In this document: positions 8,413 to 21,931 of the stretch, piece by piece
How the letters are laid out: each line of letters begins with the position of its first letter
Numbering within the stretch: the stretch's first letter is position 1
Assembly (NCBI GenBank): GCA_963834685.1
Contig: CAWICW010000040.1
Span: 10,124 to 34,123, forward strand
Direction of reading: 5' to 3'
Length of the DNA stretch: 24,000 nt
From: an uncultured Actinomycetes bacterium
Lineage (GTDB): Bacteria > Actinomycetota > Actinomycetes > Streptosporangiales > Streptosporangiaceae
Translations under genes and position numbers: made by a program
Notes under the pieces: model-generated
Databases searched by the model: none
Told to the model about the DNA's origin: nothing
The model's input: the letters and a program-made list of their open reading frames with translations, nothing else

Positions 8413-9408
8413 CTACGGGCCTGTGCCGAACACCCTGCTGACCCGGATGTCGTCGGGCTCGAGGCGGATGAGGTCATCCCTGCCGACCAGGGCGCCCGCG
8501 GCGACCAGGCGGCTGGCCTGGCGCAGCCGCATCCGGTCGATGGCGTTGCGGACGCTGCGGGCGTTGGCGAACCGGGGCTGGGCCATGCGCCGCGCCATGT
8601 ACTCGCGGAAGGCCTGGCGGGCCGCGGGCGAGAACCGGTGGCTCTCCTGGGCCACCATGAGGTCGGCGATGCGGACCAGCTCGTCCAGGGTGAAGTCGGG
8701 GAAGTCGATGTGGTGCGCGATGCGGGAGGCCATCCCGGGGTTGGAGGTGAAGAACGAATCCATCCGGTCCCGGTAGCCGGCCAGGATGACCACCAGGTCG
8801 TCGCGCTGGGCCTCCATGACCTGCAGCAGGATCTCGATCGCCTCCTGGCCGTAGTCGCGCTCGCTGTCGGCCCGGTACAGGTAGTAGGCCTCGTCGATGA
8901 GCAGCACCCCGCCCATGGCCCGCTTGAGCACCGCCTTGGTCTTCGGCGCGGTGTGCCCGACGTACTCTCCGACCAGGTCGTCACGGGTGACGCTGACCAG
9001 GTGGCCCTGGCGCAGGTAGCCCAGGTGATTGAGGATCTCGGCCATGCGCAGCGCGACCGTGGTCTTGCCCGTGCCGGGGCTGCCGGTGAAGCACATGTGC
9101 AGCGTGGGGCGGGACGCCTTGAGGCCGAAGCGGGCGCGGAGCTGGTCGACGAGGAGCAGCGCGGCGATCTCGCGGACCCGGGTCTTGACCGGGGCGATGC
9201 CGACGAGTTCGGCGTCGAGCTGGCCGAGGAGGCCGGCGATGGCCAGCTGCTTCTGCCAGGCGCCGAGGTCGACCAGGGCGTCGTCGGCGAGGGGTTCGTC
9301 CCGTTCCGGGCCGGGCGCGGCTTCGGGAGCGGGAGCTTGGGGAGCGGGAGCTTGGGGAGCGGGAGCTTCGCGGCCGGGGGCGGGCATGGCGAAGCCTGGC
9401 GCGGTCAT
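8413..9408 (-). CDS. cbbX: CbbX, AAA+ RuBisCO activase (red-type)
   Basis: It aligns closely with CbbX as I remember it: Walker [21 protein letters not shown], then [70 protein letters not shown] and [12 protein letters not shown]. The ATG at 9408 overlaps the cbbS stop (ATGA). The 427-aa track ORF over-extends into cbbS. Confidence 0.93.
9321..9369. repeat. 15-bp tandem repeat (cttggggagcgggag, about 3.3 copies) inside the 5' end of cbbX, encoding [16 protein letters not shown]
   Basis: Read directly. It keeps the reading frame (15 = 5 codons) and lies in an N-terminal extension ahead of the conserved CbbX core. Confidence 0.85.
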
Positions 9409-9836
9409 CCGCGGGGCTCTCCGTAACGCTGGCCGTGGGGCTGGCGGGCGGCGTAGGGGGACAGGGTGTAGCGGATGTGCCGGTCGCTGGCCTCCTGCCG
9501 CTCCAGCCGGAAGCCCGGCTCGTCCGGCGGGCGGTGCACGATGAAGCTCAGCGCCGTGGTCTGCCGGCCGTAGCTCGAGTCGTAGGCCGAGACCCGCACG
9601 TAGCGGTGCGGATAGGTGGCGCGGCAGGCGCGGATCTCGGCCAGCCCGGCCGAGGCGTCGGCGATGTCGAACATCGGCAGCCCCCACATCTCCCACAGGT
9701 TGTTACGGGGATGCGGGTCGTCGGTGAACTCGACCGCGACGGCCCAGCCCGCTTCGATGGCGTACTGGAGCTGGGCGGCGATCTCCTCGTCGGTCAGGTC
9801 GGGCAGGTAGGAGAAGGTGCCCTGGGTAATGCGCAC
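9405..9836 (-). CDS. cbbS: RuBisCO small subunit, red-type form I
   Basis: [57 protein letters not shown] matches red-type (IC/IE-like) CbbS. GTG start at 9836 with AGGGAG 6 nt upstream. It begins 16 nt after the cbbL stop. Confidence 0.93.
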
Positions 9837-9852: not shown

Positions 9853-11346
<1,494 letters not shown>

Positions 11347-11386
11347 CTATTGACTATTCCGGGGAGACCCTTAAGGAAAAGGTTGA

Positions 11387-12607
11387 TTATCGCGGGCTCT
11401 GGGTGGCCGGGAAACGCAGGCGCAGGAGGGCACCCTGGCCGGGGTAGCTCTTCACTTCGAGCGTGCCGCCCAGGAGTTCGGCGCGCTCGCGCATGCCGGG
11501 CAGGCCGTAGCCGGCCGGGCCGGTGCAGGTTGCGGGGCTGGTGAGGCTGGCCGGGCCGGCCGGGCTGGCGGGGGTGAAGCCCTTGCCGTCGTCCTCGATC
11601 TCGAGGGTGATCGTGTCGCCGTTGGTCAGCAGGCGCAGCCGGGCGGTACGGGCCTCGGCGTGCTTGACCACGTTCTGCAGCGCCTCCTGGGCGATGCGGT
11701 ATACGGCGGTGGCCACGTGGAGCGGCAGCTCGCAGGGGCGGGCCTCGGCGTGCACCTCGAGCTGCGGGATGGACCGGGCCAGGCTCTCCAGACTGGCGGC
11801 CAGCCCCAGGTCGTCGAGCACCGGCGGGTGCAGCCCGGCGATCGCGAACCGCGTCTCGTCCAGGGCCGCCTCGGCCAGCAGCTGGGCCTCGGCGATCTCC
11901 CGGGCGGCCACGTCCGGCGCGGTGGCCACCGCGTCCGCGGCCGCGGACAGGTGGAAGGACAGGCTCACCACCCGCTGGCTGATGCCGTCGTGGATCTCGC
12001 CGGCGAGCCGGCGGCGCTCGGTCTCCTGGGCCAGGACGATACGTTCGGCGAAGCGCTCCATGGCCTCCTCGCGCTGGGCCAGCATGCGGTGCAGCCGCGC
12101 GTTCTCGATGCCTCCGGCCATCAGGCCGGCCATCCAGCCGAGCAGCCGCACATCCGCATCGGTGAACTCGCGGCGCTGGCGCGTGTGCACGTTGAGCACA
12201 CCGACCAGGTGGTGCGGCTTGCCGAGGATCGGCACCGAGGCCATGGAGGTGAGATCCTCGCGACCCAGCGCGGGGATGTGCTTGTACCGCTGGTCGGCGT
12301 ACTTGTCGTGGGTTATGACGGCCGACCGGCCGTGCGCGGCGACCCAGCCCGACACGCCCTCGCCCATCTTGAGCTCGACCTGTCCGGCCATCTGGTGGAA
12401 CGGGGGGGTGGCGCCGCGCAGCACCAGCCGCTCGCCCGCTTCGTCGAGCAGGTACACGAAGCACACGTCGGTCTGCGTAGTCTCGGTGATCAGCGCGGCG
12501 ATGCCCTGCAGGATCTCCTCGAGGTCAAGGCCGGCCGATATCGTCTCGACGATCCGGGCCAGCAGGCGCGCCTCCCGCACCGGGTCGTCGAGGCCGAGCT
12601 GGGTCAA
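11387..12607 (-). CDS. Soluble GAF-domain sensor histidine kinase (GAF + HisKA_3 + HATPase_c, NarL-partner type)
   Basis: GAF-like N-terminus: DLEEILQGIAALITETTQTDVCFVYLLDEAGERLVLRG...GEGVSGWVAAHGRSAVI...LVGVLNVHT. H-box RRRLAGEIHDGISQ, N-box NVVKHAEA, G-boxes DDGKGF and GYGLPGMRERAELLGGTLEV. No hydrophobic TM span. The proposed TTG start at 12607 overlaps the regulator stop (TTGA), with an alternative GTG at 12580. The 555-aa track ORF over-extends. Confidence 0.85.
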   Translation of the reverse strand: MTQLGLDDPVREARLLARIVETISAGLDLEEILQGIAALITETTQTDVCFVYLLDEAGERLVLRGATPPFHQMAGQVELKMGEGVSGWVAAHGRSAVITHDKYADQRYKHIPALGREDLTSMASVPILGKPHHLVGVLNVHTRQRREFTDADVRLLGWMAGLMAGGIENARLHRMLAQREEAMERFAERIVLAQETERRRLAGEIHDGISQRVVSLSFHLSAAADAVATAPDVAAREIAEAQLLAEAALDETRFAIAGLHPPVLDDLGLAASLESLARSIPQLEVHAEARPCELPLHVATAVYRIAQEALQNVVKHAEARTARLRLLTNGDTITLEIEDDGKGFTPASPAGPASLTSPATCTGPAGYGLPGMRERAELLGGTLEVKSYPGQGALLRLRFPATQSPR

Positions 12608-13263
12608 TGGAAGATCCCCTCGCGCAGCGCCGCGGCGACCGCGCCGGCCCGGTCGGAAACGTCGAGCTTGCGGTAGATCCCGCGGACGTGGGTCTTGATC
12701 GTCTCCGCGCTCAGCGTGAGCTGGCCGGCGATGGCGCGATTCGACCGGCCGGAGACGATCAGGGCCAGCACCTCGCTCTCCCGCTGGGTCAGCCCGAGAT
12801 GCGCGCCCGGCCAGAACTCCCCGCTCTGCAGGCGGGCCGCGGACTGGGCCACCCGGGCGGCCAGGGCCGGGTCCACCAGCGTCTCGCCCTGGTGGATGCG
12901 GGTCAGGTACTCGACCAGCTCCATGCCCCGGACCCGCTTGAGCAGGAACCCCGACGCCCCGAGCCGGAGCGCCTGGTACAGGTACTGCTCGTCGTCGTAC
13001 ACGGTCAGGAAGACCACCTTGCACTCCGGGCGCCGCCGCAGGATCGCCGAGCACAGGTCCAGGCCGCTGTGGCCGTGCAGCCGGACGTCCAGCAGCACCA
13101 TGTCGGGCTCGACGTCGGCGACCAGCGCGATCGCGTCCTCTGGCTCGCAGGCCTCCCCCACGATCTGCACGTTGCCCTGGTAGGAGGACAGCATCGCGCG
13201 CAGCCCGTCAAGCACCATCTGGTGGTCATCGACGATCACCAAGCGTGGCGGTGACCTGTTCAT
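12604..13263 (-). CDS. NarL/LuxR-family two-component response regulator
   Basis: Receiver domain: LVIVDDHQMVLDGL, DMVLLDVRLHGHSG and VVFLTVYDD. The C-terminal LuxR HTH is LTQRESEVLALIVSGRSNRAIAGQLTLSAETIKTHVRGIYRKLDV. ATG at 13263 (the track start at 13359 is a GTG with a junk-looking extension). Confidence 0.9.
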   Translation of the reverse strand: MNRSPPRLVIVDDHQMVLDGLRAMLSSYQGNVQIVGEACEPEDAIALVADVEPDMVLLDVRLHGHSGLDLCSAILRRRPECKVVFLTVYDDEQYLYQALRLGASGFLLKRVRGMELVEYLTRIHQGETLVDPALAARVAQSAARLQSGEFWPGAHLGLTQRESEVLALIVSGRSNRAIAGQLTLSAETIKTHVRGIYRKLDVSDRAGAVAAALREGIFH

Positions 13264-13264
13264 G

Positions 13265-13329
13265 CCCGAAAGCGTACGTTCCCGGCCCCGGTTTCGGGAT
13301 CCCCCATCGTTCTCCCCCGGGCGGGGGAG
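13265..13329. promoter_or_regulatory. Palindromes in the divergent response-regulator / prk control region
   Basis: CCCGAAA-N20-TTTCGGG (13265-13298) abuts the regulator ATG. CTCCCCC-GGGC-GGGGGAG (13312-13329) is a 7-bp-arm palindrome. Both were read directly, and their function is inferred only from position. Confidence 0.35.
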
Positions 13330-13395
13330 GCACGCCGCCCCGCTAGTGCGTAGTTTCACAAGCAGGGAGTCCCGGACCTAGGGAGCGAGCGGCAG

Positions 13396-14328
13396 GTGCC
13401 CGAGAAGATGATGCGCATGCACCGCGCCCGCGGGCCGCGCCCGACGATGCTGGCCATCGCCGGGGACAGCGCCGCGGGCAAGACCACGCTGGCCCGCGGC
13501 ATCGTCCAGGCCCTGGGCGCCGAGCGCAGCACGTCGCTGTGCGTGGACGACTACCACCGGTACGACCGGGCCGAGCGCACCGGGCTGCCGTTCACCGCGC
13601 TGCATCCGGACTGCAACTACATGCAGATCATGGAACAGCACCTGCAGCTGCTGGCCATGGGCGAGCCGGTGCTCAAGCCGGTGTACGACCACTCGACCGG
13701 GCTGCTGGCCCGGCCGCGGCTGGTCGAGCCGCGGGAGGTGGTCATCGCCGAGGGGCTGCTGCCGCTGCACACCAGGCTGTCACGCGCCTGTTTCGACGTC
13801 ACCGTGTACGTGGATCCCGGCGAGCAGATCCGGCGGGAGTGGAAGGTGCGCCGCGACACCGCCGACCGCGGCTACACCCGGCAGCAGGTCATGGCCGAGC
13901 TCGCGCGGCGGGAACCGGAGTCCGAATCGTTTATCCGGCGTCAGCGGCGCGAGGCCGACATCACGGTCAGCTTCGGCCCGATCGACGGGCGGGAGGACCC
14001 GCCGAGGACGCCGCTGTCGGTCACGCTGCTGCTCCGGCCGACCATCCGGCACCCCAACTTCGCCAAGCTGATCGCCGAGGTGCCGCAGTCGGTGGCCCAC
14101 CTCAAGCTGATGCGGGACGCGGACGGGAGCCCGGTAGACGCGCTGCACATCCACGGGTACGCGCCGGAGGCCGAGGCCGAGGTGCTGGCCAAGGCGATCT
14201 GGTCCAGCCTCGGGGTGGACCAGGCGCTGCCGGACTGCCTGGGTCTGGTCGCGGGCGGGGTGCGGAGCGAGCCGTTGCGGCTGGCGCAGCTGCTGCTGCT
14301 GTACCACATCGTGCAGGACATCGCCTGA
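13396..14328 (+). CDS. prk: Phosphoribulokinase (cyanobacterial/plant-like PRK/uridine-kinase fold)
   Basis: P-loop IAGDSAAGKTTL, then CVDDYHRYDR, TALHP, KPVYDHSTGL, VIAEGLLPLH and WKVRRDTADRGYT follow the order I remember from Synechococcus-type PRK. The start is uncertain (GTG 13396, or ATG 13408/13411/13417). Confidence 0.85.
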   Translation: MPEKMMRMHRARGPRPTMLAIAGDSAAGKTTLARGIVQALGAERSTSLCVDDYHRYDRAERTGLPFTALHPDCNYMQIMEQHLQLLAMGEPVLKPVYDHSTGLLARPRLVEPREVVIAEGLLPLHTRLSRACFDVTVYVDPGEQIRREWKVRRDTADRGYTRQQVMAELARREPESESFIRRQRREADITVSFGPIDGREDPPRTPLSVTLLLRPTIRHPNFAKLIAEVPQSVAHLKLMRDADGSPVDALHIHGYAPEAEAEVLAKAIWSSLGVDQALPDCLGLVAGGVRSEPLRLAQLLLLYHIVQDIA

Positions 14329-14330
14329 GC

Positions 14331-15212
14331 ATGGTCACGCTGACCCAGCTGCACACGTTCCTGGCGGTGGCCGAGACCGGGTCGGTACGGGCGGCCGCTG
14401 AGCGGCTGGTGGTGACCGAGTCGGCGGTGTCGTCCTGCGTCACGGCGCTGCAGAAGGACCTCGAGCTGGCCCTGGTGGCCAAGAACGGCCGCGGGCTGCG
14501 GCTGACCGATGCCGGCCAGGTGTACGCCGGGTACGCCCGGGGCGTGCTGGGGCTGCTGGACGAGGGGCGTTCGGCGGCCGCGGGTGAGGCCGGCGGGGGG
14601 GTGCTCCGGGTGGCCGCCGTGACCACGGCCGGGGAGCAGCTGCTGCCCGGGCTGCTGGCCGGGTTCCGCCGCCGGTACCCGCGGATCGGCATCCACCTGG
14701 AGGTGGGCAACCGGGAGCGGACGCTGCGGCTGGCTGACGACCATCACGTCGACCTGGTGCTCGGCGGCCGGCCGCCGCAGGGTCCGGGATGGCCGCGGAT
14801 GATGGCGCACGCCGTCCGGCCGAACGAGCTGGTGGTGGTGGGGCCTGTGGGGTTGGCTCCGCCCTCCGCCGCAGACCTGGCGGCTCAGACCTGGCTGTTG
14901 CGCGAGCCGGGCTCGGGGACGCGCGCGACGACCGAGGCGTACCTGGAGGAACTGCAGATCGCGCCGGGCACGCTCACGGTCGGCTCCAACGTGGCCGTCT
15001 GCGAGTCCGTCGCCGTGGGTCTGGGAGTGACCCTGATCTCACGCGACGCGGTGGCGCGCGACATCGGCCGGGGCGTGCTGGCTGAGCTGCCCGCGCCCGG
15101 CACGCCGCTGCGGCGGGACTGGTGCCTGGTCTCCCGGGAGGGCCACCTGCCCGCGCCGAGCCGGCTGTTCGTCCGGCACGTCCGGCGGGCCGCGGGGTGG
15201 ACGGCGGCCTAG
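14331..15212 (+). CDS. LysR-family transcriptional regulator (CbbR-like by context)
   Basis: N-terminal wHTH: MVTLTQLHTFLAVAETGSVRAAAERLVVTESAVSSCVTALQKDLELALV. It has a LysR substrate-binding-type C-terminus. The ATG is 2 nt after the prk stop. The 557-aa track ORF is this gene plus an out-of-frame run over prk. Confidence 0.88.
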   Translation: MVTLTQLHTFLAVAETGSVRAAAERLVVTESAVSSCVTALQKDLELALVAKNGRGLRLTDAGQVYAGYARGVLGLLDEGRSAAAGEAGGGVLRVAAVTTAGEQLLPGLLAGFRRRYPRIGIHLEVGNRERTLRLADDHHVDLVLGGRPPQGPGWPRMMAHAVRPNELVVVGPVGLAPPSAADLAAQTWLLREPGSGTRATTEAYLEELQIAPGTLTVGSNVAVCESVAVGLGVTLISRDAVARDIGRGVLAELPAPGTPLRRDWCLVSREGHLPAPSRLFVRHVRRAAGWTAA

Positions 15213-15238: not shown

Positions 15239-15320
15239 CGGCTCCACTGGCGGGGGGAAGCGGGCCGGGGCGGCCGGAGTCAGGCTCGTGGTCACGCGCT
15301 CTTCGGAAGGGGCTAAAGAC

Positions 15321-15458
15321 ATGAACGGACCCAGCCTGGCTCCCATCCTCGTCCCGGTCACCGGGACGCTGCTGCTCATCGTGTGGCTGATCCTGGTCTT
15401 CCGGGCCGGCCGCCACGCCGACCGGCCCAGCGTCCGGTCCGGGACCGACCCGCGGTGA
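15321..15458 (+). CDS. Small (45 aa) single-pass membrane protein, function unknown, translationally coupled to the aldolase gene
   Basis: The ATG at 15321 has AAGGGG 8 nt upstream. The sequence MNGPSLAPILVPVTGTLLLIVWLILVFRAGRHADRPSVRSGTDPR has one TM helix and a basic tail. About 43 of 45 codons end in G/C, a GC3 bias like that of the real genes here. Its TGA overlaps the aldolase GTG (GTGA at 15455-15458). Confidence 0.5.
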   Translation: MNGPSLAPILVPVTGTLLLIVWLILVFRAGRHADRPSVRSGTDPR

Positions 15459-16483
15459 CCGCCATCGCGCTGACCGCGGCCGACCTGGTGCTGGCCGGCC
15501 GGGGCATCCTGGCCGCGGACGAGAGCGTGCCGACCATGGACGCCCGGCTGCGGCGGGCCGGGGCCTTGCCGGAAGCGGAGGCCCGGCGGGCGTACCGGGA
15601 GATGCTGGTCACCACGCCGGGCCTGAGCCTGGGGATCAGCGGCGTCATCTTGTGCGACGAGACGTTCCGGGCGCGGATGAGCGACGGGCGTTCGTTCCCC
15701 GAGGCGCTGGCCGACCGGGGACTGCTGCCCGGGATCAAGGTCGACACCGGGGCGCGGCCGCTGGCCGGCGCGCCCGGCGAGACCGTCACCGAAGGGCTGG
15801 ACGGGCTGCGGGCCAGGCTGGCGGAGTACGCGGAGCTCGGGGCCCGGTTCGCCAAGTGGCGGGCCGTGCTCCGGATCGGCGACGGGCGCCCGTCCTGGCG
15901 GGCCCTGCAGGCCAACGCGTACACCCTGGCCCGGTACGCGCGGCTCTGCCAGGAGGCGGGGCTGGTGCCCGTGGTCGAGCCCGAGGTGCTCATGGAGGGC
16001 ACCCACGGCTCGGGCCGCTGCCGGGAAGTGACCTCGGCCGTGCTCATGGTCACGGTTACCGAGCTGCTGGACATGGGGGTGGCCCTGGACGGCGTCGTGC
16101 TCAAGCCGAACATGGTGGTGCCGGGCGCGGACTGCCCGGAGCTGGCCTCCCCGGAGACGGTCGCGCAGCAGACCCTGGCCGCGCTGTGGTGCGTGGTGCC
16201 CGGGGAGATGGCCGGGGTGGCGTTCCTGTCCGGCGGGCAGAGCCCGGCCCGGGCGACCGCGAACCTGGCTGCGGTCCGGCGGCTCGGCGCGCCCTGGCCG
16301 GTGACCTTCTCCTTCGGCCGGGCCCTGGTCGACCCGGCGCTAGCCGCCTGGCACGGCGACCCGGCCCGCGTGGCCGCCGGCCAGCGGGCCCTGGCCAACC
16401 GGGTGGCCTGCAACGTCGCGGCGCTGCACGGCAGCTACACATCGGTGCTGGAGCCCAGCTACATGCTGGCCGGGTGCCCGTAA
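15455..16483 (+). CDS. Class I (Schiff-base) fructose-1,6-bisphosphate aldolase
   Basis: Motifs: GILAADES, LLPGIKVDTG, FAKWRAVL, VVEPEVL, VLKPNMVVPG (catalytic Lys region), VAFLSGGQS and FSFGRAL. I prefer the GTG at 15455 (342 aa), because the track start at 15383 adds a junk-like PGRPPRRP leader. Confidence 0.9.
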   Translation: MTAIALTAADLVLAGRGILAADESVPTMDARLRRAGALPEAEARRAYREMLVTTPGLSLGISGVILCDETFRARMSDGRSFPEALADRGLLPGIKVDTGARPLAGAPGETVTEGLDGLRARLAEYAELGARFAKWRAVLRIGDGRPSWRALQANAYTLARYARLCQEAGLVPVVEPEVLMEGTHGSGRCREVTSAVLMVTVTELLDMGVALDGVVLKPNMVVPGADCPELASPETVAQQTLAALWCVVPGEMAGVAFLSGGQSPARATANLAAVRRLGAPWPVTFSFGRALVDPALAAWHGDPARVAAGQRALANRVACNVAALHGSYTSVLEPSYMLAGCP

Positions 16484-17044
16484 CGCGGAGTCCGCGGCCG
16501 GGACAGTCACCTCGAACTCCACCCCGACCTCGTCCTTCAGCTTGAGCGCGCCGAAGAAGCCGACGTACGGCTTGATCCCGAGCGCCGTCTGGACCACCGT
16601 GGCCGAGCCGCGGTACCGGCCGGCCCCGGGCTCGGACACCTGCAGCCGGACCGGCTCGCTCTGCCCGTTGAGGGTGAATGTGCCCTCGATGGCGCCGCCG
16701 GTGGTGCCGAAGCGGACGATTTTCGAGGAGGCGAAGCTGGCCGTGCCGGTGCCGAGGATCCCGCTGATCTGCTTCTTGATGTCCGCGCGGTCCCGGTCGC
16801 TGAGCGGCTTGGCCCCGCCGGTGCCCTCGCGGACCTCCAGCGAGCCGAGGTCGAACTCGGCCTTCACCGTCGCCGCGGTGACGCCGCCCGCTTCCTCGTC
16901 CGGCACCTCGACCTGCGCCGACCAGCGGGTGATCTCGATGGTCAGGTCGTGGCCGGCCCTGGCCGCGAGGCCGGCCCGGCCGGTCTTGAGCACCACGCGT
17001 CCGTTGTCCGGTCCGAGCCGGAAGTTACCCGTAATAGCAGCCAC
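16340..17044 (-). CDS. YceI-family (polyisoprenoid-binding-like) protein; the ORF runs about 150 nt past the homologous end into the aldolase gene
   Basis: YceI pattern: FRLGPDNGRVVLKTGRAGLAARAGHDLTIEITRW...FTLNGQSEPVRL...ALKLKDEVGVEFEVTV. GTG start at 17044. The recognisable domain ends near 16498, but the first stop is at 16340. Confidence 0.78.
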   Translation of the reverse strand: MAAITGNFRLGPDNGRVVLKTGRAGLAARAGHDLTIEITRWSAQVEVPDEEAGGVTAATVKAEFDLGSLEVREGTGGAKPLSDRDRADIKKQISGILGTGTASFASSKIVRFGTTGGAIEGTFTLNGQSEPVRLQVSEPGAGRYRGSATVVQTALGIKPYVGFFGALKLKDEVGVEFEVTVPAADSALRAPGQHVAGLQHRCVAAVQRRDVAGHPVGQGPLAGGHAGRVAVPGG

Positions 17045-17138
17045 GGGCCCAACCGTACGGGCTCGGGCGGGCGGCGGTCCACTCGCGGTGCCTGCGGGAC
17101 CGGGTGTATCGCCTGGTATGCGGGGTAATGTGCCCGTT

Positions 17139-17156
17139 CCGGGACCCGGGTCCTGG
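17139..17156. promoter_or_regulatory. Palindrome CCGGGACCCGGGTCCTGG (perfect 12-bp core GGACCCGGGTCC) between the HTH gene stop and the YceI start
   Basis: Read directly. It could be a terminator for the HTH gene or an operator, since it has GGGAC-N4-GTCC half-sites. Confidence 0.3.
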
Positions 17157-17171
17157 GGGCAGGTTGCAGAA

Positions 17172-17741
17172 TTAAGGCAGCGGGAAGTCGCCGAACAGCT
17201 CGCGGATCCGGCGCAGGTCGCGCAGCCGCGGCTCGGTGGTGCCGCCGACCCAGCGGCTGACCGTCTTGACCGAGACCCCGAGCTGGCGGGCGGCGACCTC
17301 CATGGTCATGCCCTCGCGGCGCAGCGCGGCGGCCATCCAGTCGGCGAAGGCCGTCTCGTCTCCGTCCTGGCCGATGCCCAGCCCGTCCGCGCCGACCCTG
17401 CCGGGCTCCTGGGACTTGAGCAGCGAGGCCAGCGCGTCCAGGCCCGCCGGCGTCCCGATCTGGGCGCCGGAGCGCAGCACGTCGACCTCGACGTGGTCGG
17501 GGAAGATCCGGAAGGAAACGTTGATCGCGCCGGTCTCGCCGGCCGCCTCGAGCAGCGCCTGGGCGACGGTCTCGCCCACCTCGCGGTTATCGTCCTCGGA
17601 CAACGGCGACTGGGACAGGCAGCGGCGGACGAAGTCGCGGATGTCCGGGATAGACGACGGGCGCGCGGGGAATGTCTGCGACAGGACCACCACCGGTACA
17701 ACCTCGACCTTGTCGCTGATCAAGTCGGCACGATGCTCCAT
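17172..17741 (-). CDS. Regulatory protein with a C-terminal XRE/Cro-type helix-turn-helix and an N-terminal anti-sigma-kinase-like (RsbW-like, degenerate) domain
   Basis: The C-terminus MTMEVAARQLGVSVKTVSRWVGGTTEPRLRDLRRIRELF is a typical HTH_XRE. The N-terminus SIPDIRDFVRRCL...EVGETVAQALLEAAGETGAINVSFRIFPDHVEVDV resembles the HATPase_c_2 layout without the N-box Asn. The ATG at 17741 has GAGGGG 5 nt upstream. Confidence 0.6.
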   Translation of the reverse strand: MEHRADLISDKVEVVPVVVLSQTFPARPSSIPDIRDFVRRCLSQSPLSEDDNREVGETVAQALLEAAGETGAINVSFRIFPDHVEVDVLRSGAQIGTPAGLDALASLLKSQEPGRVGADGLGIGQDGDETAFADWMAAALRREGMTMEVAARQLGVSVKTVSRWVGGTTEPRLRDLRRIRELFGDFPLP

Positions 17742-18352
17742 CGCCACCCCTCGGGTCGGCCAAAGACGGTAAATCGCCCCGGTGGCCGCTGTCACCGGGG
17801 TATGACAATGAGGGTACGTGGAATATGTCCTTACGGACGAGTCGGAACGGATAGACAGTTGTGTCTAGCAGGGCGACTCTTCTGTCTTGAGATCTCCACG
17901 TCACAGGAATAGGCTGTCGTCACCGGTGATGGCGCCGTTGCCGTGAGCCGGCTTCTTGTGAGCATGTGATGAGCGGTCAGCGTGCCGGCGCATCTCGTCG
18001 GCGAGCTACTGGGGCACACCGAGAACGGGCTCGGGTGGCCCAGCAGTACCGCACTGCCCGGTCCATCTACCTCTGGGCGGCAACCGAAGGGGTGGCCGCA
18101 TTGGCATCCTCCGTCGCCAGGAGGTCGAGGATTCCAGCCGCGACACACGGTCGCGCTGTTGGTTCGCGGTTCATCGGCCCGGTAGTCCGGAAGCCTCCCC
18201 GCGCAGCCACGACGTGCCCCGCCGCGGTCCCGCACATGTCCGGTTGGTTATCGCGGACGTGCTCACCGTAGCGCCCCGCACCGACATTTCACGGAGGGAG
18301 GGAGCGGCGTTCCTCCCCGGCTCGAACGCCGGGCTGCACCGCCGCGATCTCG

Positions 18353-19396
18353 ATGACCCAGGCCGCGGAAGAGCCGGTCCTGCATATTCTCTGGATGAAC
18401 GGGGGCCTTGGTTGTGACGGGGACTCGGTGGCGCTGACCGCCGCGACCCAGCCGAGCATCGAGGAGATCGTGCTCGGGGCGCTGCCGGGACTGCCCAAGG
18501 TGGCGGTGCACTGGCCGCTGATCGACTTCGAGTGCGGGCCCGAGCAGGGCGCCGACAACTTCATCGAGTGGTGGCACAAGGCAGACCGGGGCGAACTCGA
18601 CCCGTTCGTCCTGGTCGTCGAGGGATCCATCCCCAACGAGGCGATCAAGTCCGAGGGTTACTGGTGCGGCTTCGGCAACAACCCGGCGACCGGGCAGCCG
18701 ATGACCACCAACGAGTGGCTCGACCGGCTCGCCCCCAAGGCGACCGCCATCCTGGCCGTGGGCACCTGTGCCACCTACGGCGGCATCCACGCCATGGCGG
18801 GCAACCCGACCGGCGCCATGGGCGTGCCGGACTACCTCGGCTGGAGCTGGAAGTCCAAGGCCGGCCTGCCGATCGTCTGCGTGCCGGGCTGCCCGATCCA
18901 GCCGGACAACCTGTCCGAGACCATCCTGTACCTGCTCTACCAGGTCGCCGGCCAGGCGCCGATGATCCCGCTGGACGAGGCGCTACGGCCCAAGTGGCTG
19001 TTCGACGCCACCGTGCACCAGGGCTGCGACCGGGCCGGGTACTACGAAGAAGGCGACTTCGCGACCGAGTACGGCTCGCCCTCGTGCCTGGTCAAGCTGG
19101 GCTGCTGGGGTCCCGTGGTCAAGTGCAACGTGCCCAAGCGGGGCTGGATCAACGGCGTGGGCGGCTGCCCGAACGTGGGCGGCATCTGCATCGCCTGCAC
19201 GATGCCCGGCTTCCCGGACAAGTTCATGCCGTTCATGGACAAGCCGCCGGGCGCGACGGTATCGACGACCGCTAGCGGCATGTACGGCACGGTCATACGC
19301 AGTCTCCGGAGCTTCACGGCCAAGACGCTGGACAAGGAACCGAAGTGGCGCGTGAAGGGCTCCGAACTCCGCACCGGCTACCAGAAGACGTGGTGA
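18353..19396 (+). CDS. hhyS: [NiFe]-hydrogenase small subunit, group 1h/5 (Hhy type), no Tat signal
   Basis: The N-terminus runs straight into the proximal-cluster motif: MTQAAEEPVLHILWMNGGLGCDGDS. It then has GTCATYGG, CVPGCPIQPD, HQGCDRAGYY, LGCWGPVVKCNV and GGCPNVGGICIACTMPGFPD. There is no RRxF twin-arginine leader. No alternative in-frame start exists back to the TAG at 18269. Confidence 0.93.
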   Translation: MTQAAEEPVLHILWMNGGLGCDGDSVALTAATQPSIEEIVLGALPGLPKVAVHWPLIDFECGPEQGADNFIEWWHKADRGELDPFVLVVEGSIPNEAIKSEGYWCGFGNNPATGQPMTTNEWLDRLAPKATAILAVGTCATYGGIHAMAGNPTGAMGVPDYLGWSWKSKAGLPIVCVPGCPIQPDNLSETILYLLYQVAGQAPMIPLDEALRPKWLFDATVHQGCDRAGYYEEGDFATEYGSPSCLVKLGCWGPVVKCNVPKRGWINGVGGCPNVGGICIACTMPGFPDKFMPFMDKPPGATVSTTASGMYGTVIRSLRSFTAKTLDKEPKWRVKGSELRTGYQKTW

Positions 19397-19403
19397 ACAT
19401 ACG

Positions 19404-21212
19404 ATGACCTCACTTGAGTACGGAGAGAGCACAGGCGCCGGCGACGCCGAACTCACCGAGATGACCTGGGATCCCATCACCCGGATCGTCGGCAGCCTGG
19501 GTATCTATACCAAGATCGACTTCAAGGCCAAGCGGGTCGCGGAGTGCCATAGCACCTCATCGATCTTCCGCGGCTACAGCATCTTCATGAAGGGGAAAGA
19601 CCCGCGGGACGCGCACTTCATCACCAGCCGGATCTGCGGGATCTGCGGTGACAACCACGCGACCTGCTCGGTCTACAACCAGAACATGGCCTACGGCGTC
19701 CGCCCGCCGCACCTCGGCGAGTGGATCATCAACCTGGGCGAGGCCGCGGAGTACATGTTCGACCACAACATCTTCCAGGAGAACCTGGTCGGGGTGGATT
19801 TCTGCGAGAAGATGGTGGCCGAGACCAACCCGGGCGTGCTGGAGATGGCCAACCACACCGAGGCGCCACACGCGGGCGACCACGGCTACCGCACCATCGG
19901 CGACATCATGCGCTCGCTGAACCCGCTGGAGGGCGAGTTCTACCGCGAGGCGCTCCAGGTGAGCCGGTCCACCAGGGAGATGTTCTGCCTGATGGAAGGC
20001 CGCCACGTGCACCCGTCCACGCTGTACCCGGGCGGGGTGGGCACGGTCGCCACGGTGCAGCTGTTCACCGACTACCTGACCCGGCTGATGCGTTACGTGG
20101 AGTTCATGAAGCGGGTCGTGCCGATGCACGACGACCTGTTCGACTTCTTCTACGAGGCGCTCCCCGGATACGAGGAAGTCGGCCGGCGGCGGGTGCTGCT
20201 CGGCTGCTGGGGTAGCCTCAACGACCCCGAGTACTGCGACTTCACCTACCGGAACATGGCCTCGTGGGGCCGGAAGATGTTCGTCTCGCCCGGCGTGGTG
20301 GTGGACGGGCAGCTGGTCACCAACAGCCTGGTCGACATCAATCTGGGCATCAGGATCCTGCTCGGTCACTCGTATTACGAGGACTGGGAGGACAAGGAGA
20401 TGTTCGTCACCCACGACGAGCTCGGCAACCCGGTCGACCGGCGCCACCCGTGGAACCAGCACACGATCCCGCGGCCCGCCAAGCGCGACTTCGACGACAA
20501 GTACAGCTGGACCATGTCGCCGCGCTGGTTCGACGGGAAGGACTACCTGCCGCTGGACACCGGCGGCGGCCCGATCGCCCGGCTGTGGGCCACCGCGCTC
20601 GGCGGCCTGGTCGACTGCGGCTACGTGCAGTCCACCGGGCACAGCGTGAAGATCAACCTGCCGCGGACCATGTCCCGGCCGGAAACCACCTTCGAGTGGA
20701 AGATCCCGCACGACAAGCAGGGCCAGCCGCTGTCCAACGCGATCGAGCGGGACCGGGCCCGGACCTACTTCCAGGCCTACGCGGCTGCGCTCGGCGTGTA
20801 CTTCGTCGAGCAGGCGCTGGCCGAGATCCGGGCCGGGCGGACCAAGACCTGGGAATCATTCAACGTGCCCCAGGACGCGTTCAGCTGCGGGTTCACCGAG
20901 GCTGTCCGCGGCGTGCTGTCGCACCACATGGTGATCAGGGACGGGAAGATCGCGAACTACCACCCGTACCCGCCCACGCCGTGGAACGGCAGCGTCCGCG
21001 ACACCTACGGGACGCCCGGGCCGTACGAGGACGCGGTGCAGAACACGCCGATCTTCGAGGAGAACCCGCCGGATAACTTCAAGGGCATCGACATCATGCG
21101 CGCCGTGCGCAGCTTCGACCCGTGCCTGCCCTGCGGCGTGCACATGTACCTCGGCGGCGGCAAGGTGCTCAAGACGGCGCACTCGCCCACTGGTGTGACA
21201 CTGGCAATGTAG
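19404..21212 (+). CDS. hhyL: [NiFe]-hydrogenase large subunit, group 1h/5 (Hhy type)
   Basis: L1 motif TSRICGICGDNHA and L2 motif SFDPCLPCGVH, followed by a 22-aa C-terminal tail (the substrate for a maturation protease). At 602 aa, the size is typical of this group. Confidence 0.95.
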   Translation: MTSLEYGESTGAGDAELTEMTWDPITRIVGSLGIYTKIDFKAKRVAECHSTSSIFRGYSIFMKGKDPRDAHFITSRICGICGDNHATCSVYNQNMAYGVRPPHLGEWIINLGEAAEYMFDHNIFQENLVGVDFCEKMVAETNPGVLEMANHTEAPHAGDHGYRTIGDIMRSLNPLEGEFYREALQVSRSTREMFCLMEGRHVHPSTLYPGGVGTVATVQLFTDYLTRLMRYVEFMKRVVPMHDDLFDFFYEALPGYEEVGRRRVLLGCWGSLNDPEYCDFTYRNMASWGRKMFVSPGVVVDGQLVTNSLVDINLGIRILLGHSYYEDWEDKEMFVTHDELGNPVDRRHPWNQHTIPRPAKRDFDDKYSWTMSPRWFDGKDYLPLDTGGGPIARLWATALGGLVDCGYVQSTGHSVKINLPRTMSRPETTFEWKIPHDKQGQPLSNAIERDRARTYFQAYAAALGVYFVEQALAEIRAGRTKTWESFNVPQDAFSCGFTEAVRGVLSHHMVIRDGKIANYHPYPPTPWNGSVRDTYGTPGPYEDAVQNTPIFEENPPDNFKGIDIMRAVRSFDPCLPCGVHMYLGGGKVLKTAHSPTGVTLAM

Positions 21213-21373
21213 GCCCGTAGCGGGCGCCCGTCCCGCGAGCCAAAGGGCGCCGGCCCCGCCTGGACTGTGTTTTCCCCACAGACCCACCCCAGGCGCGACG
21301 AAGGAGCGACGAGGGAAGGCGGGGCCTCAAAAGGCGCCCGGAGGCGAGCGGGACACAACAAAGGAGTGTGAGG

Positions 21374-21931
21374 ATGGCCGCAGGCCACGATGCGCAAAAG
21401 GCGGGTGAGCGGGTCGAAGCGCTGCTCGCCGAGCTGGGGTCGCAGGCCGGGCCGCAGGTCGCCGCCACCGCGGAAGAGCTGGTGAGCTGCCTGGTCGATC
21501 TCTACGGCGCCGGACTGGCCGAGATCGTCAAGATCATCGGCGCGGACGCGGAGGCCGGCCAGCGGCTGATGGGCCAGCTGGCCGGCGATCCGCTGGTGGA
21601 AAGCCTGCTGCTGCTGCATGACCTGCACCCGCTGCCGGTCGCGGACCGGGTCCGGCGCGCGATCGAGGCAGTCATGCCGCAACTCGGCGCGCACCCGGGC
21701 GAGGTGGAGTTCGACGGCGTCGACGACCAGGGCGTCATCCACCTGCGCCTGGAGCGCGGCGGCCACGGCTGCGGGTCCTCCTCGGGAGCGGTTCAGGCGG
21801 CCATCGAGGAGGCGGTAATCGCGGCGGCGCCGGAGGCGGCCGGCGTCGACGTCGACGTCGTCGCCCCGGAACCGGAGTTGCCGCTGCTGCAGATCAGCCG
21901 GCACCCGACGGCGGTCCGGGGGGCCCGGTGA
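21374..21931 (+). CDS. NifU-like domain protein associated with the hydrogenase (possibly HhyE-like)
   Basis: The C-terminal half AIEAVMPQLGAHPGEVEFDGVDDQGVIHLRLERGGHGCGSSSGAVQAAIEEAV follows the Nfu/NifU C-terminal domain layout. The ATG at 21374 has AAGGAG 7 nt upstream (track start is GTG 21368). The gene ends in a GTGA overlap with the next ORF. Confidence 0.65.
   Translation: MAAGHDAQKAGERVEALLAELGSQAGPQVAATAEELVSCLVDLYGAGLAEIVKIIGADAEAGQRLMGQLAGDPLVESLLLLHDLHPLPVADRVRRAIEAVMPQLGAHPGEVEFDGVDDQGVIHLRLERGGHGCGSSSGAVQAAIEEAVIAAAPEAAGVDVDVVAPEPELPLLQISRHPTAVRGAR

Follow-up and report, generated by a model that had tools for sequence, protein, structure and literature searches.

When a two-component pair lies immediately upstream of the genes for form I RuBisCO, does it control them, and does it do so in the place of the LysR-type regulator CbbR? 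The question is raised by a stretch of 24,000 nucleotides from an uncultured bacterium of the Streptosporangiaceae (hereafter the window), in which a NarL-type response regulator and a GAF-domain histidine kinase sit co-directionally just 5' of cbbL. An earlier note, made from the letters alone, had described this arrangement, and the gene calls agree with it in strand and coordinates (Table 1). The note had also proposed that the pair takes the position usually held by CbbR, that transcripts may read through from the kinase into cbbL and that the sensor recalls the gas sensors DosS and DosT. Here we follow these proposals through the gene content of the cluster, its conservation in related genomes, its promoters and the sensor domain.

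Gene content of the cluster

The regulator has the makings of a NarL/FixJ-family protein: a receiver domain (Response_reg, E = 2.8e-24) with the acidic pocket and the Asp/Thr/Lys set (Asp12, Asp13, Asp59, Thr87 and Lys109 are all canonical in the translation), followed by a C-terminal GerE/LuxR helix-turn-helix (GerE, E = 6.2e-17). Its top solved relatives are VraR, DevR and NarL, and no NCBIfam equivalog matched it at or above its cut-off. Asp59 (codon 13087-13089) is the predicted phospho-acceptor. The kinase belongs to the HisKA_3 class (DesK/NarX type), having a HisKA_3 domain with the conserved histidine, then HATPase_c, and DesK as its top match by both sequence and fold; His206 lies within EIHDGISQ and is invariant across 15 homologues. 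In the AlphaFold2 model (mean pLDDT 78.6), as in the sequence comparison, it is the DHp/CA core that resembles DesK.

Several structural observations of the earlier note are borne out. The TGA stop of the regulator and the TTG start of the kinase overlap in TTGA, according to the gene calls; Pfam finds a single GAF domain in the kinase, and a Kyte-Doolittle scan of the kinase gives no transmembrane segment (highest 19-residue mean, 1.22).

Divergent from the pair is a prk-lysR-fba unit whose second gene, 1 kb from the pair, has CbbR as its best NCBIfam match (160 bits, below the equivalog cut-off of 450), so that a CbbR-type LysR gene, by best match although below the cut-off, is present within the cluster. 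The true start of fba is probably further downstream than 15383, its homologues in loci L085-L087 being 339 aa long.

Table 1 Features of the window discussed in the text
Feature	Position	Strand	Basis or remark
cbbX, AAA+ RuBisCO activase-like	8413..9408	-	Pfam AAA and AAA_lid_6; Mycobacterium plasmid homologue annotated CbbX
cbbS, RuBisCO small subunit	9405..9836	-	Pfam RuBisCO_small
cbbL, form I RuBisCO large subunit, 476 aa	9853..11283	-	Pfam RuBisCO_large and RuBisCO_large_N; NCBIfam 770 bits
Shine-Dalgarno of cbbL, GAGGAG	11290-11295	-	Precedes ATG 11283
cbbL promoter core TCAATAGACG, then 17-nt spacer, then CATGGT (11321-11326)	11321..11353	-	-35-like TAGACG at 11344-11349
LTTR-box-like AT-rich interrupted dyad TCAACCTTTTCCTTAA	11371..11386	-	Adjoins kinase stop; centred about -65 from predicted cbbL start
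Soluble sensor histidine kinase, 406 aa, TTG start	11387..12607	-	Pfam domains
Kinase HATPase_c	11402-11713	-	Residues 299-402; Pfam, E = 7.2e-15
Kinase HisKA_3	11816-12019	-	Residues 197-264; Pfam, E = 4.9e-14; His206 codon 11990-11992
Kinase GAF (GAF/GAF_2)	12107-12529	-	Residues 27-167; Pfam
NarL/LuxR-type response regulator, 219 aa	12604..13263	-	Pfam Response_reg and GerE; ATG start
TACGCT, -10-like hexamer	13271..13276	-	7 nt before regulator ATG; predicts a leaderless promoter for the pair
G/C composite element: dyad TCCCCCGGGCGGGGGA (13313-13328) and extra TCCCCC half-site (13300-13305)	13300..13328	.	Divergent prk/regulator intergenic region
TAGTTT, predicted -10 of the prk-lysR-fba unit	13351..13356	+	22 nt past the dyad
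prk, phosphoribulokinase	13396..14328	+	Pfam PRK; NCBIfam phosphoribulokinase, 355 bits against a cut-off of 236
CbbR-like LysR-type regulator	14331..15212	+	Pfam HTH_1 and LysR_substrate; ATG 2 nt past prk stop
fba, class I fructose-bisphosphate aldolase	15383..16483	+	Pfam Glycolytic

Linkage of the pair to Calvin-cycle genes

Orthologues of the kinase (56-77% identity) were surveyed in 80 species-level genomes. The regulator adjoins the kinase in 79 of these, prk is the gene next upstream of the regulator in 44 (37 co-directional and 7 divergent), and cbbL, cbbS or cbbX is found within 10 kb in 39. This linkage is kept across at least four gene orders (prk co-directional, prk divergent, LysR inserted and fba inserted) and occurs in Streptosporangiales, Micromonosporales, Mycobacterium, Euzebyales, Egibacteraceae and Trebonia. 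The layout of the window is another matter: of the 39 species loci with RuBisCO linkage, 34 have kinase and cbbLSX in convergent orientation, and the co-directional position upstream of cbbL recurs at only two, plus the window's own lineage, which keeps the exact gene order. This survey, which starts from the kinase, upholds the association with Calvin-cycle genes but not the generality of the arrangement from which the earlier note had argued. Judging by synteny, the evolution of the pair is bound up with Calvin-cycle genes, and its place upstream of cbbLSX is, as far as gene orders tell, a lineage-specific rearrangement.

A neighbour-joining tree places the cbb-linked state in every clade and in the outgroups, with the exception of a single Pseudonocardiaceae clade. 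In that clade, which accounts for 32 of the 80 loci, the pair is kept, its identity similar, and Calvin-cycle genes are missing from the 10 kb around it; it can therefore function without local cbb genes. Such loci, some in unrelated contexts (for example, beside an Na+/H+ exchanger or toxin-antitoxin genes), are what one would expect if the pair were a passenger that controls an unrelated regulon and owes its adjacency to genomic-island inheritance rather than to function. The plasmid-borne state of the cluster in Mycobacterium points the same way; the M. intracellulare plasmid, which carries the same linkage, was the only actinobacterial record in a plasmid search with region, kinase and PRK queries. 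We nevertheless regard a passenger as unlikely, since the linkage has outlasted all of the rearrangements listed above and spans several orders, and since adjacency to prk is conserved where adjacency to hydrogenase genes is not. For the latter reason a hydrogenase was also rejected as the real partner of the pair.

A predicted independent promoter for cbbLSX

The earlier note counted 103 nt from the kinase stop to the cbbL start, which fits the ATG at 11283. A longer, 490-aa cbbL frame from ATG 11325 was rejected as an artefact because that ATG belongs to a conserved CATNGT motif and reads CATC or CATT in close relatives. The short palindrome CCTTAAGG is indeed present at 11369-11376, and the gap is free of strong hairpins as had been reported: no terminator-like site was found in it on the relevant strand, and its RNA fold is no better than that of shuffled sequence (z = -0.33).

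Within this gap lies a module, comprising an LTTR-type box near -65 and then TCAATAGAC-N17-CATNGT, that is conserved in about 37 related loci. Its core is nearly invariant in these loci, whatever their gene order, with a single copy in each locus and none elsewhere; loci in which the kinase is convergent, or is not found on that side, have the module before cbbL too. Compared with 32 anchored loci, the dyad TCAACCTTTTCCTTAA keeps the register of their consensus, ttAA-N7-cTTgA, and the version in locus L059 is a perfect palindrome, TCAAC-N6-GTTGA. An apparent 12-nt deletion of the box in the window, obtained when its CTTAAG was aligned to the CTTAAG of L003 and L004, was discarded, as anchoring on TCAATAGAC shows the box intact and in register. 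An ECF-type reading of the motif (GGAAC...CGT) was likewise discarded, its spacing being about 32 nt. A metagenome scan with the promoter 14-mer AACTCTCAATAGAC gave 120 matches, of which 115 were chance hits in unrelated, mostly lower-GC DNA and four were real cbbL loci; in the one of these four long enough to assess, the pair is present and convergent.

As read from the sequence, the gap module is an independent cbbL promoter. Such a promoter is among the findings that the earlier note had itself set against read-through, and it therefore counts against that model. With no terminator in the gap, transcripts could run on from the kinase into cbbL, and to this extent the note's suggestion stands, but such read-through would be neither required nor the conserved mechanism. 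A stronger version, in which the pair stands in the place of CbbR, regulator, kinase and cbbLSX form one operon and RuBisCO is made mainly by read-through from the promoter of the pair, seems to us improbable. The five co-directional genes, the short gap lacking terminator and stable hairpin and the compact order kept in the window's lineage would suit it. It is opposed by the CbbR-like gene 1 kb away, by a gap promoter with an LTTR-type box that is also found where the kinase is placed otherwise, and by the scarcity of the gene order among RuBisCO-linked loci.

The same two features, the CbbR-like gene within the cluster and the LTTR-type box before cbbL, speak against the proposal that the pair has taken the place of CbbR; it appears to add to a CbbR-type regulator rather than to replace it. 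Compared with CbbR-controlled cbb operons, where the LysR-type activator sits at about -65 and -35, the window is alike in its CbbR-like gene, its AT-rich dyad near -65 and a core overlapping -35. It differs in the place of the LysR gene, which is not the immediate divergent neighbour of cbbL but the second gene of the prk-lysR-fba unit, with the pair in between. In most related loci a LysR homologue adjoins cbbL, co-directional and immediately upstream of it.

A predicted promoter of the pair and a candidate operator

At 73 of 81 loci a hexamer of the form TANNNT stands 6-8 nt before the start codon of the regulator, the figure for shuffled sequences being 1.3 +/- 1.0. The pair thus has what looks like a promoter of its own, apparently leaderless.

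In the divergent region between the regulator and prk lies a G/C-rich dyad, TCCCC-N6-GGGGA, centred about -42.5 from the predicted starts at prk, fba and gap promoters. Of 51 windows taken upstream of prk, 36 contain its strict form (2.4 per kb), whereas the remaining 1.49 Mb has only 10 matches (0.0067 per kb), an enrichment of about 360-fold upstream of prk; TCCCCCGGGCGGGGGA is the only perfect match in our window. The dyad also precedes fba in L007 and L020, two loci whose surrounding 10 kb lack a LysR gene, and gap in L084. At the same spacing from the dyad as the predicted -10 of the window, relatives have TAGGGT, TATGGT or TACCGT. Neighbouring ORFs of the extra matches outside prk regions had no Pfam matches, so these matches add no members to the regulon. 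An RNA hairpin or terminator was rejected as an explanation, for the dyad precedes the predicted -10, is found in divergent promoter regions and takes its orientation from the gene downstream. We consider the dyad a candidate operator, although the LysR protein or another factor may just as well be what binds it.

The earlier note knew of no characterised example of such a regulatory arrangement. A characterised precedent for a two-component system inside a cbb cluster is CbbRRS (CbbSR, CbbRR1 and CbbRR2) of Rhodopseudomonas palustris, which works on top of CbbR, adjusts the expression of form I RuBisCO and reports the intracellular energy and redox state (PMC6430793, PMC3018481); it is built from a hybrid kinase together with two receiver proteins (PMC3018481). 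Common to both is a two-component system encoded with form I RuBisCO genes. The present pair comes from a different phylum and has no sequence-family relationship to CbbRRS, and in place of the three-protein build it has a GAF-HisKA_3 kinase, in which Pfam finds no receiver domain, and one regulator, which bears GerE. The precedent, together with the co-occurrence of a LysR gene and the pair in most loci, would fit a mode of action in which the phosphorylated regulator mainly modulates CbbR at the cbbL and prk promoters, by protein contact or co-binding, and not through an operator of its own. We give this little credence: CbbRR1 and CbbRR2 are not known to have a DNA-binding domain, unlike the regulator here, whose GerE domain is complete, and the dyad lies at the position of a class II activator site.

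The sensor domain

In a profile search of the PDB, the GAF domain of the kinase matched 3e0y (E = 2e-22) and the PtsP GAF structures 3ci6 (E = 1.8e-19) and 3trc (E = 1.1e-12), and a Foldseek search returned 3trc and 3ci6 at TM 0.85 and an r.m.s.d. of 2.2-2.7 Å; the NCBIfam PtsP model matches kinase residues 16-181 (E = 3.2e-16). By likeness of both sequence and fold, the domain is thus a PtsP-type (EI-Ntr-like) GAF. The PtsP GAF binds glutamine and gates autophosphorylation of the phosphotransfer module attached to it (PMC4848567). While this is the best match on both counts, identity is only about 24-26%, and the PtsP domain sits on a PEP-dependent Enzyme I, whereas the one described here sits on a histidine-kinase core.

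The resemblance to DosS and DosT of Mycobacterium tuberculosis suggested by the earlier note holds for the general plan, a soluble HisKA_3 kinase with an N-terminal GAF and a NarL-family regulator (DosR, also DevR), and is detectable as homology in the ATPase domains and in DevR. It does not extend to the sensor. DosS and DosT have tandem GAF-A and GAF-B domains, whereas Pfam and the structural model agree on one GAF stretch here, leading directly into the DHp helix; in the PDB profile search DevS and DosT match the kinase in the ATPase domain only (3zxo, 3zxq), no DosS or DosT GAF structure is among the sequence or fold matches, and neither search found homology to the haem-binding GAF-A. The contexts differ as well, a dormancy regulon there and the Calvin cycle here. 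A haem-based sensor of O2, NO, CO or redox state that couples gas status to RuBisCO is accordingly very unlikely, the shared output half and the invariance of Cys49 and His141 in the GAF across homologues being outweighed by the single GAF and its PtsP-like matches, and Cys49 is not distinctive, since 3e0y has it at the aligned position.

Two further comparisons place the pair. RegB/RegA (PrrB/PrrA) of Rhodobacter is a two-component system that co-regulates Calvin-cycle genes with CbbR; it is a global, unlinked and membrane-bound redox system from another kinase and regulator family, whereas the pair is cluster-linked and soluble. Among structural templates, the HisKA_3-NarL systems DesK-DesR and VraS-VraR come first for the DHp/CA core and the regulator, but they are membrane sensors of envelope state without a GAF domain. 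A literature search found no description of the present regulator-kinase pair.

A proposed role for the pair

Because the pair stands beside CO2-fixation genes in many soil actinobacteria, it probably helps to control them. On balance, we think it slightly more likely than not that it represents an uncharacterised two-component family of the Actinomycetota that travels with the Calvin-cycle cluster and acts in trans as a metabolite-sensing co-regulator alongside CbbR. Under this co-regulator reading, the cytoplasmic kinase would sense a small intracellular ligand through its one PtsP-type GAF, autophosphorylate on His206 and pass the phosphate to Asp59 of the regulator, steps for which the canonical motifs are intact. 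Transcribed from its own leaderless promoter, as the conserved -10 element suggests, the pair would act on Calvin-cycle promoters, with the CbbR-type LysR protein working beside it at its presumed site, the LTTR box and core that precede cbbL in nearly all related loci. The most likely direct target of the regulator, given its position, symmetry and adjacency, would be the TCCCC-N6-GGGGA dyad, a step that, should the co-regulator reading be right, we put at about an even chance.

More tentatively, and with less conviction, the pair may serve specifically to regulate the half of the Calvin cycle other than RuBisCO in the Actinomycetota of soils, among them lineages with high-affinity-type [NiFe] hydrogenases beside form I RuBisCO. 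The PtsP-like GAF would then read a central metabolite (carbon or nitrogen status, or a Calvin-cycle intermediate), and the phosphorylated regulator would activate prk, fba and gap through the dyad at -42.5, leaving cbbLSX to CbbR. If this division of labour were true, it would be a two-regulator split not described for any autotroph.

The practical value of the finding is moderate, the two-component architecture being ordinary and its function inferred throughout. It does offer handles: the metabolite-type GAF is a candidate signal input, the dyad is a candidate operator, and cultured carriers are available for genetics (Planobispora siamensis NBRC 107568, Saccharopolyspora endophytica KCTC 19397 and Planosporangium mesophilum NBRC 109066), with the plasmid of M. 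intracellulare subsp. chimaera AH16 as a further carrier. Hardly any work has addressed how Actinomycetota control RuBisCO and the Calvin cycle, and the hosts of the pair are abundant soil bacteria whose CO2-fixation clusters often lie beside uptake hydrogenases. A role for the pair in these bacteria would show that the addition of a two-component system to control by CbbR arose here independently of CbbRRS and RegBA in the Proteobacteria.

Organization of the gene cluster

The regulator, kinase and cbbLSX genes lie in that order on the minus strand of the window, whose GC content is ~70%. The regulator stop and the TTG start of the kinase overlap in TTGA, the kinase contains no hydrophobic segment (the 19-residue Kyte-Doolittle mean peaks at 1.22) and a gap of 103 nt, counted to the cbbL ATG, separates the kinase from cbbL. 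No terminator-like site was found in this gap on the relevant strand, and its RNA folding is no better than that of shuffles (z = -0.33). The gene calls, domains and terminator and folding checks confirm all that the earlier note had stated as fact about the pair, the overlap and the gap. For cbbX, the first-ATG/GTG open reading frame (8413-9696; 427 aa) runs into cbbS; the likely start is ATG 9408, with an ATGA overlap with the cbbS stop, and a Pro/Ala-rich repeat precedes the AAA+ domain at the CbbX N-terminus.

Features of the cluster in window coordinates
Feature	Position	Strand	Remarks
Response regulator	12604-13263	minus	Response_reg and GerE domains
Histidine kinase	11387-12607	minus	GAF (27-167), HisKA_3 (197-264), HATPase_c (299-402)
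cbbL	9853-11283	minus	start ATG 11283, behind GAGGAG
cbbS	9405-9836	minus
cbbX	8413-9408	minus
Phosphoribulokinase (prk)	13396-14328	plus	divergent from regulator
LysR-type regulator (lysR)	from ATG 14331	plus	2 nt past prk stop
Class I aldolase (fba)		plus	third gene of set prk, lysR, fba
AT-rich interrupted dyad	11371-11386		TCAACCTTTTCCTTAA; flush against kinase stop codon
cbbL core	11344-11353		TCAATAGACG
CATGGT	11321-11326		17-nt spacer from core
G/C dyad at prk	13313-13328		sole perfect match in 24 kb
Extra G/C half-site	13300-13305
One-mismatch G/C dyad	15243-15258		TCCACTGGCGGGGGGA; between lysR and fba

The best NCBIfam match of the LysR protein is CbbR, the LysR-type regulator of cbb operons, at 160 bits, under the equivalog cut-off of 450. 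Because this CbbR-like gene also sits in the cluster, the premise that the pair stands in the place of CbbR was wrong. Beyond the aldolase, small and large subunit genes of a [NiFe] hydrogenase (18353-21212) and a NifU-like gene are found beside the Calvin-cycle genes (window 16340-21931), separated from them by a YceI-like and an HTH gene; two homologous loci (L086 and L087) keep the same order, and hydrogenase and cbb genes are joined on a Mycobacterium plasmid as well.

Conservation of the neighborhood

Relatives of the kinase number in the thousands, and the sources of the top ones (64-91% identity) are soil metagenomes and MAGs of Streptosporangiaceae, Micromonosporaceae, Pseudonocardiaceae and Egibacteraceae. 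For a species survey, a 15-sequence alignment was scanned against one genome per GTDB species, and the resulting 80 loci (56-77% identity) were scored by tblastn using the window's proteins; the survey is anchored on the kinase, and its figures are shares of kinase-bearing loci, not of actinobacterial cbbL loci. From the cbbL side, a metagenome search with the cbbL promoter 14-mer returned matches almost all due to chance.

The regulator lies immediately upstream of the kinase in 79 of the 80 loci and prk immediately upstream of the regulator in 44 (37 co-directional, 7 divergent), while cbbL, cbbS or cbbX is found within 10 kb in 39 and Calvin-cycle genes are absent within 10 kb in 32. In most of the 39 cbbLSX-linked loci (34), cbbX-cbbS-cbbL and the kinase converge (fba< >prk>regulator>kinase> <cbbX<cbbS<cbbL<lysR), 3 are co-directional with lysR separating the kinase from cbbL and only 2 share the window's arrangement, in which the kinase immediately precedes cbbL. 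Within the window's own lineage (kinase identity 86-91%), the order is exactly that of the window, fba<lysR<prk< >regulator>kinase>cbbLSX, and the gaps measure 72-100 nt. An annotated plasmid of Mycobacterium intracellulare subsp. chimaera carries cbbLSX, fba, the pair and rpe-tkt-prk together, adjoining hydrogenase maturation genes and with a LysR gene 9 kb off, and on an Egibacteraceae contig prk and the pair diverge, and fba and gap lie downstream. In a neighbor-joining tree, a single Pseudonocardiaceae clade, with varied contexts around the pair, takes in the 32 loci that lack Calvin-cycle genes, and the other clades and outgroups are all cbb-linked. The pair is thus genuinely linked to the Calvin-cycle cluster, and this linkage, retained through several rearrangements, is probably ancestral. 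The conserved neighbor is prk, placement upstream of cbbL is a local peculiarity, and, as in the Pseudonocardiaceae clade, the pair can exist apart from cbb genes.

Several individual loci showed further features. In the Pseudonocardiaceae clade (L010, L020, L022, L023, L027, L048, L052, L057), a folate/methionine C1 block encoding FTCD_C cyclohydrolase, formate-THF ligase, PfkB kinase, MetK, MetE and MTHFR is often found at a distance of 1-7 kb from the pair, and L020 has a class I aldolase gene with a G/C dyad right beside the kinase. L077 (8337-13976) carries the entire prk-regulator-kinase unit in tandem duplicate; compared with the window proteins, the two copies show ~64% identity for PRK and kinase and 73-74% for the regulator. 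An apparently decaying cluster in L003 (8191-12916) has intact lysR, regulator and kinase genes, lacks prk and retains, 1 kb downstream, a cbbL remnant (231 residues, 55% identity) with the TCAATAGAAA core still upstream.

Predicted promoter elements

Promoter signals in the window and its relatives were inferred from conservation. A TANNNT hexamer lies 6-8 nt 5' of the regulator start codon in 73 of 81 loci (shuffles, 1.3 +/- 1.0; TACGCT-TTCGGGC-ATG in the window), a spacing characteristic of leaderless transcripts, and the regulator transcript is predicted to be leaderless. The pair keeps this promoter even where it follows prk. At the regulator 5' end, L036 has GGCACGGACGGCCCCGCT in four copies, and in L021 the regulator is preceded by a long near-perfect palindrome.

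Alignment of the cbbL upstream regions, anchored on their common core, gave the consensus ttAA-N7-cTTgA, then aAActCTCAATAGACa-N17-GgCAt.GTg. The core occurs once per locus, upstream of cbbL only, in ~37 loci spanning every gene order, and reads as a putative sigma-70-type -35/-10 pair (TAGACG, 17 nt, CATGGT); the ATG at 11325 is replaced by CATC or CATT in relatives. The AT-rich dyad, a perfect TCAAC-N6-GTTGA in L059, is centered ~65 nt upstream of the predicted cbbL start, where LysR-type recognition sites canonically lie, and the window lineage keeps the entire module within the short kinase-cbbL gap. Together, the conserved core and AT-rich box indicate that cbbL has its own promoter, probably a CbbR-dependent one. 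The earlier note, which considered read-through from the kinase into cbbL plausible, itself named an independent promoter as a refuting result, and the conserved module points to one. A 15-nt near-invariant core, AAACTCTCAATAGACA, overlaps the cbbL -35 (window 11321-11386; ~37 loci) and is conserved far above what a -35 alone requires; it could be a CbbR activation site or a site of another factor.

A different, G/C element lies upstream of prk in nearly all cbb-linked loci: TCCCCC, 6-9 nt, the dyad TCCCC-N6-GGGGA and, ~22 nt on, a TAGGGT-like -10. Of 51 prk-upstream regions, 36 contain the strict dyad (2.4 per kb), vs 10 matches in 1.49 Mb elsewhere (0.0067 per kb), a ~360-fold enrichment. 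Divergent fba/prk regions often hold one copy per gene, oriented relative to its own gene, and the dyad is also found upstream of gap in L084 and upstream of fba in L007 and L020, where the pair is present and LysR absent within 10 kb; at fba and gap promoters, too, the element precedes a -10-like hexamer by ~22 nt. In the window, the dyad center falls at ~-42.5 from the predicted start of prk, as is typical for class II activators. The one-mismatch copy ahead of fba may mark an internal fba promoter, with one-mismatch dyads not enriched in the window overall (5 found vs 2.4 expected). The prk 5' region of L035 has ~7 tandem copies of a 16-nt unit.

Sensor domain of the kinase

When a 15-homologue profile was searched against PDB sequences, the kinase core matched DesK and VraS, and the GAF domain matched 3e0y (E 2e-22) and the PtsP/EI-Ntr GAF domains 3ci6 and 3trc; DevS and DosT were matched through their ATPase domains only. 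Foldseek with the AlphaFold model (mean pLDDT 78.6) likewise returned DesK for the core and the PtsP GAF for the sensor (TM 0.85, rmsd 2.2-2.7 A), and NCBIfam PtsP aligned to kinase residues 16-181. The proposed likeness to DosS/DosT therefore holds for the output half and not for the GAF sensor. Glutamine binding by the PtsP GAF controls autophosphorylation (PMC4848567). On its input side, the kinase resembles a sensor of small metabolites rather than of gases through heme. The GAF has many invariant polar and basic residues; the Pseudonocardiaceae kinases have these in common with the cbb-linked ones, which makes a shared signal probable.

Proposed role in carbon fixation

Besides its domain architecture and PtsP-like GAF, the pair has intact catalytic residues and a conserved linkage to prk, cbbLSX and fba, and conserved promoter-like elements are seen at the regulator, cbbL and prk. 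The kinase would read an intracellular metabolite and phosphorylate the regulator at Asp59, and the regulator, acting in trans, would join CbbR in controlling Calvin-cycle promoters. The most economical assignment would have CbbR bind the AT-rich box of cbbL and the NarL-type regulator bind the G/C dyad of prk, fba and gap, given their usual neighbors, the -65 and -42.5 positions and the dyad beside the pair where no LysR gene is near; the dyad might instead be a site for LysR or a third factor. Read-through from kinase to cbbL may occur in the window and would add a feed-forward link, but is not needed.

In Rhodobacter, RegBA is a known two-component input to cbb expression. The cluster-encoded CbbRRS of Rhodopseudomonas palustris responds to NAD(P)H and ATP by activating form I RuBisCO (PMC6430793). 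It comprises two receiver proteins along with a hybrid kinase (PMC3018481), an architecture unrelated to that of the pair. As no NCBIfam equivalog covers the regulator or kinase and no description of the pair was found in the literature, the pair is an uncharacterized member of an ordinary class, whose genomic association is new and well supported. Of the interpretation first offered, CbbR replacement, read-through as the mechanism and the analogy to DosS-like sensing find no support; what stands is a likely functional link between the pair and CO2 fixation.
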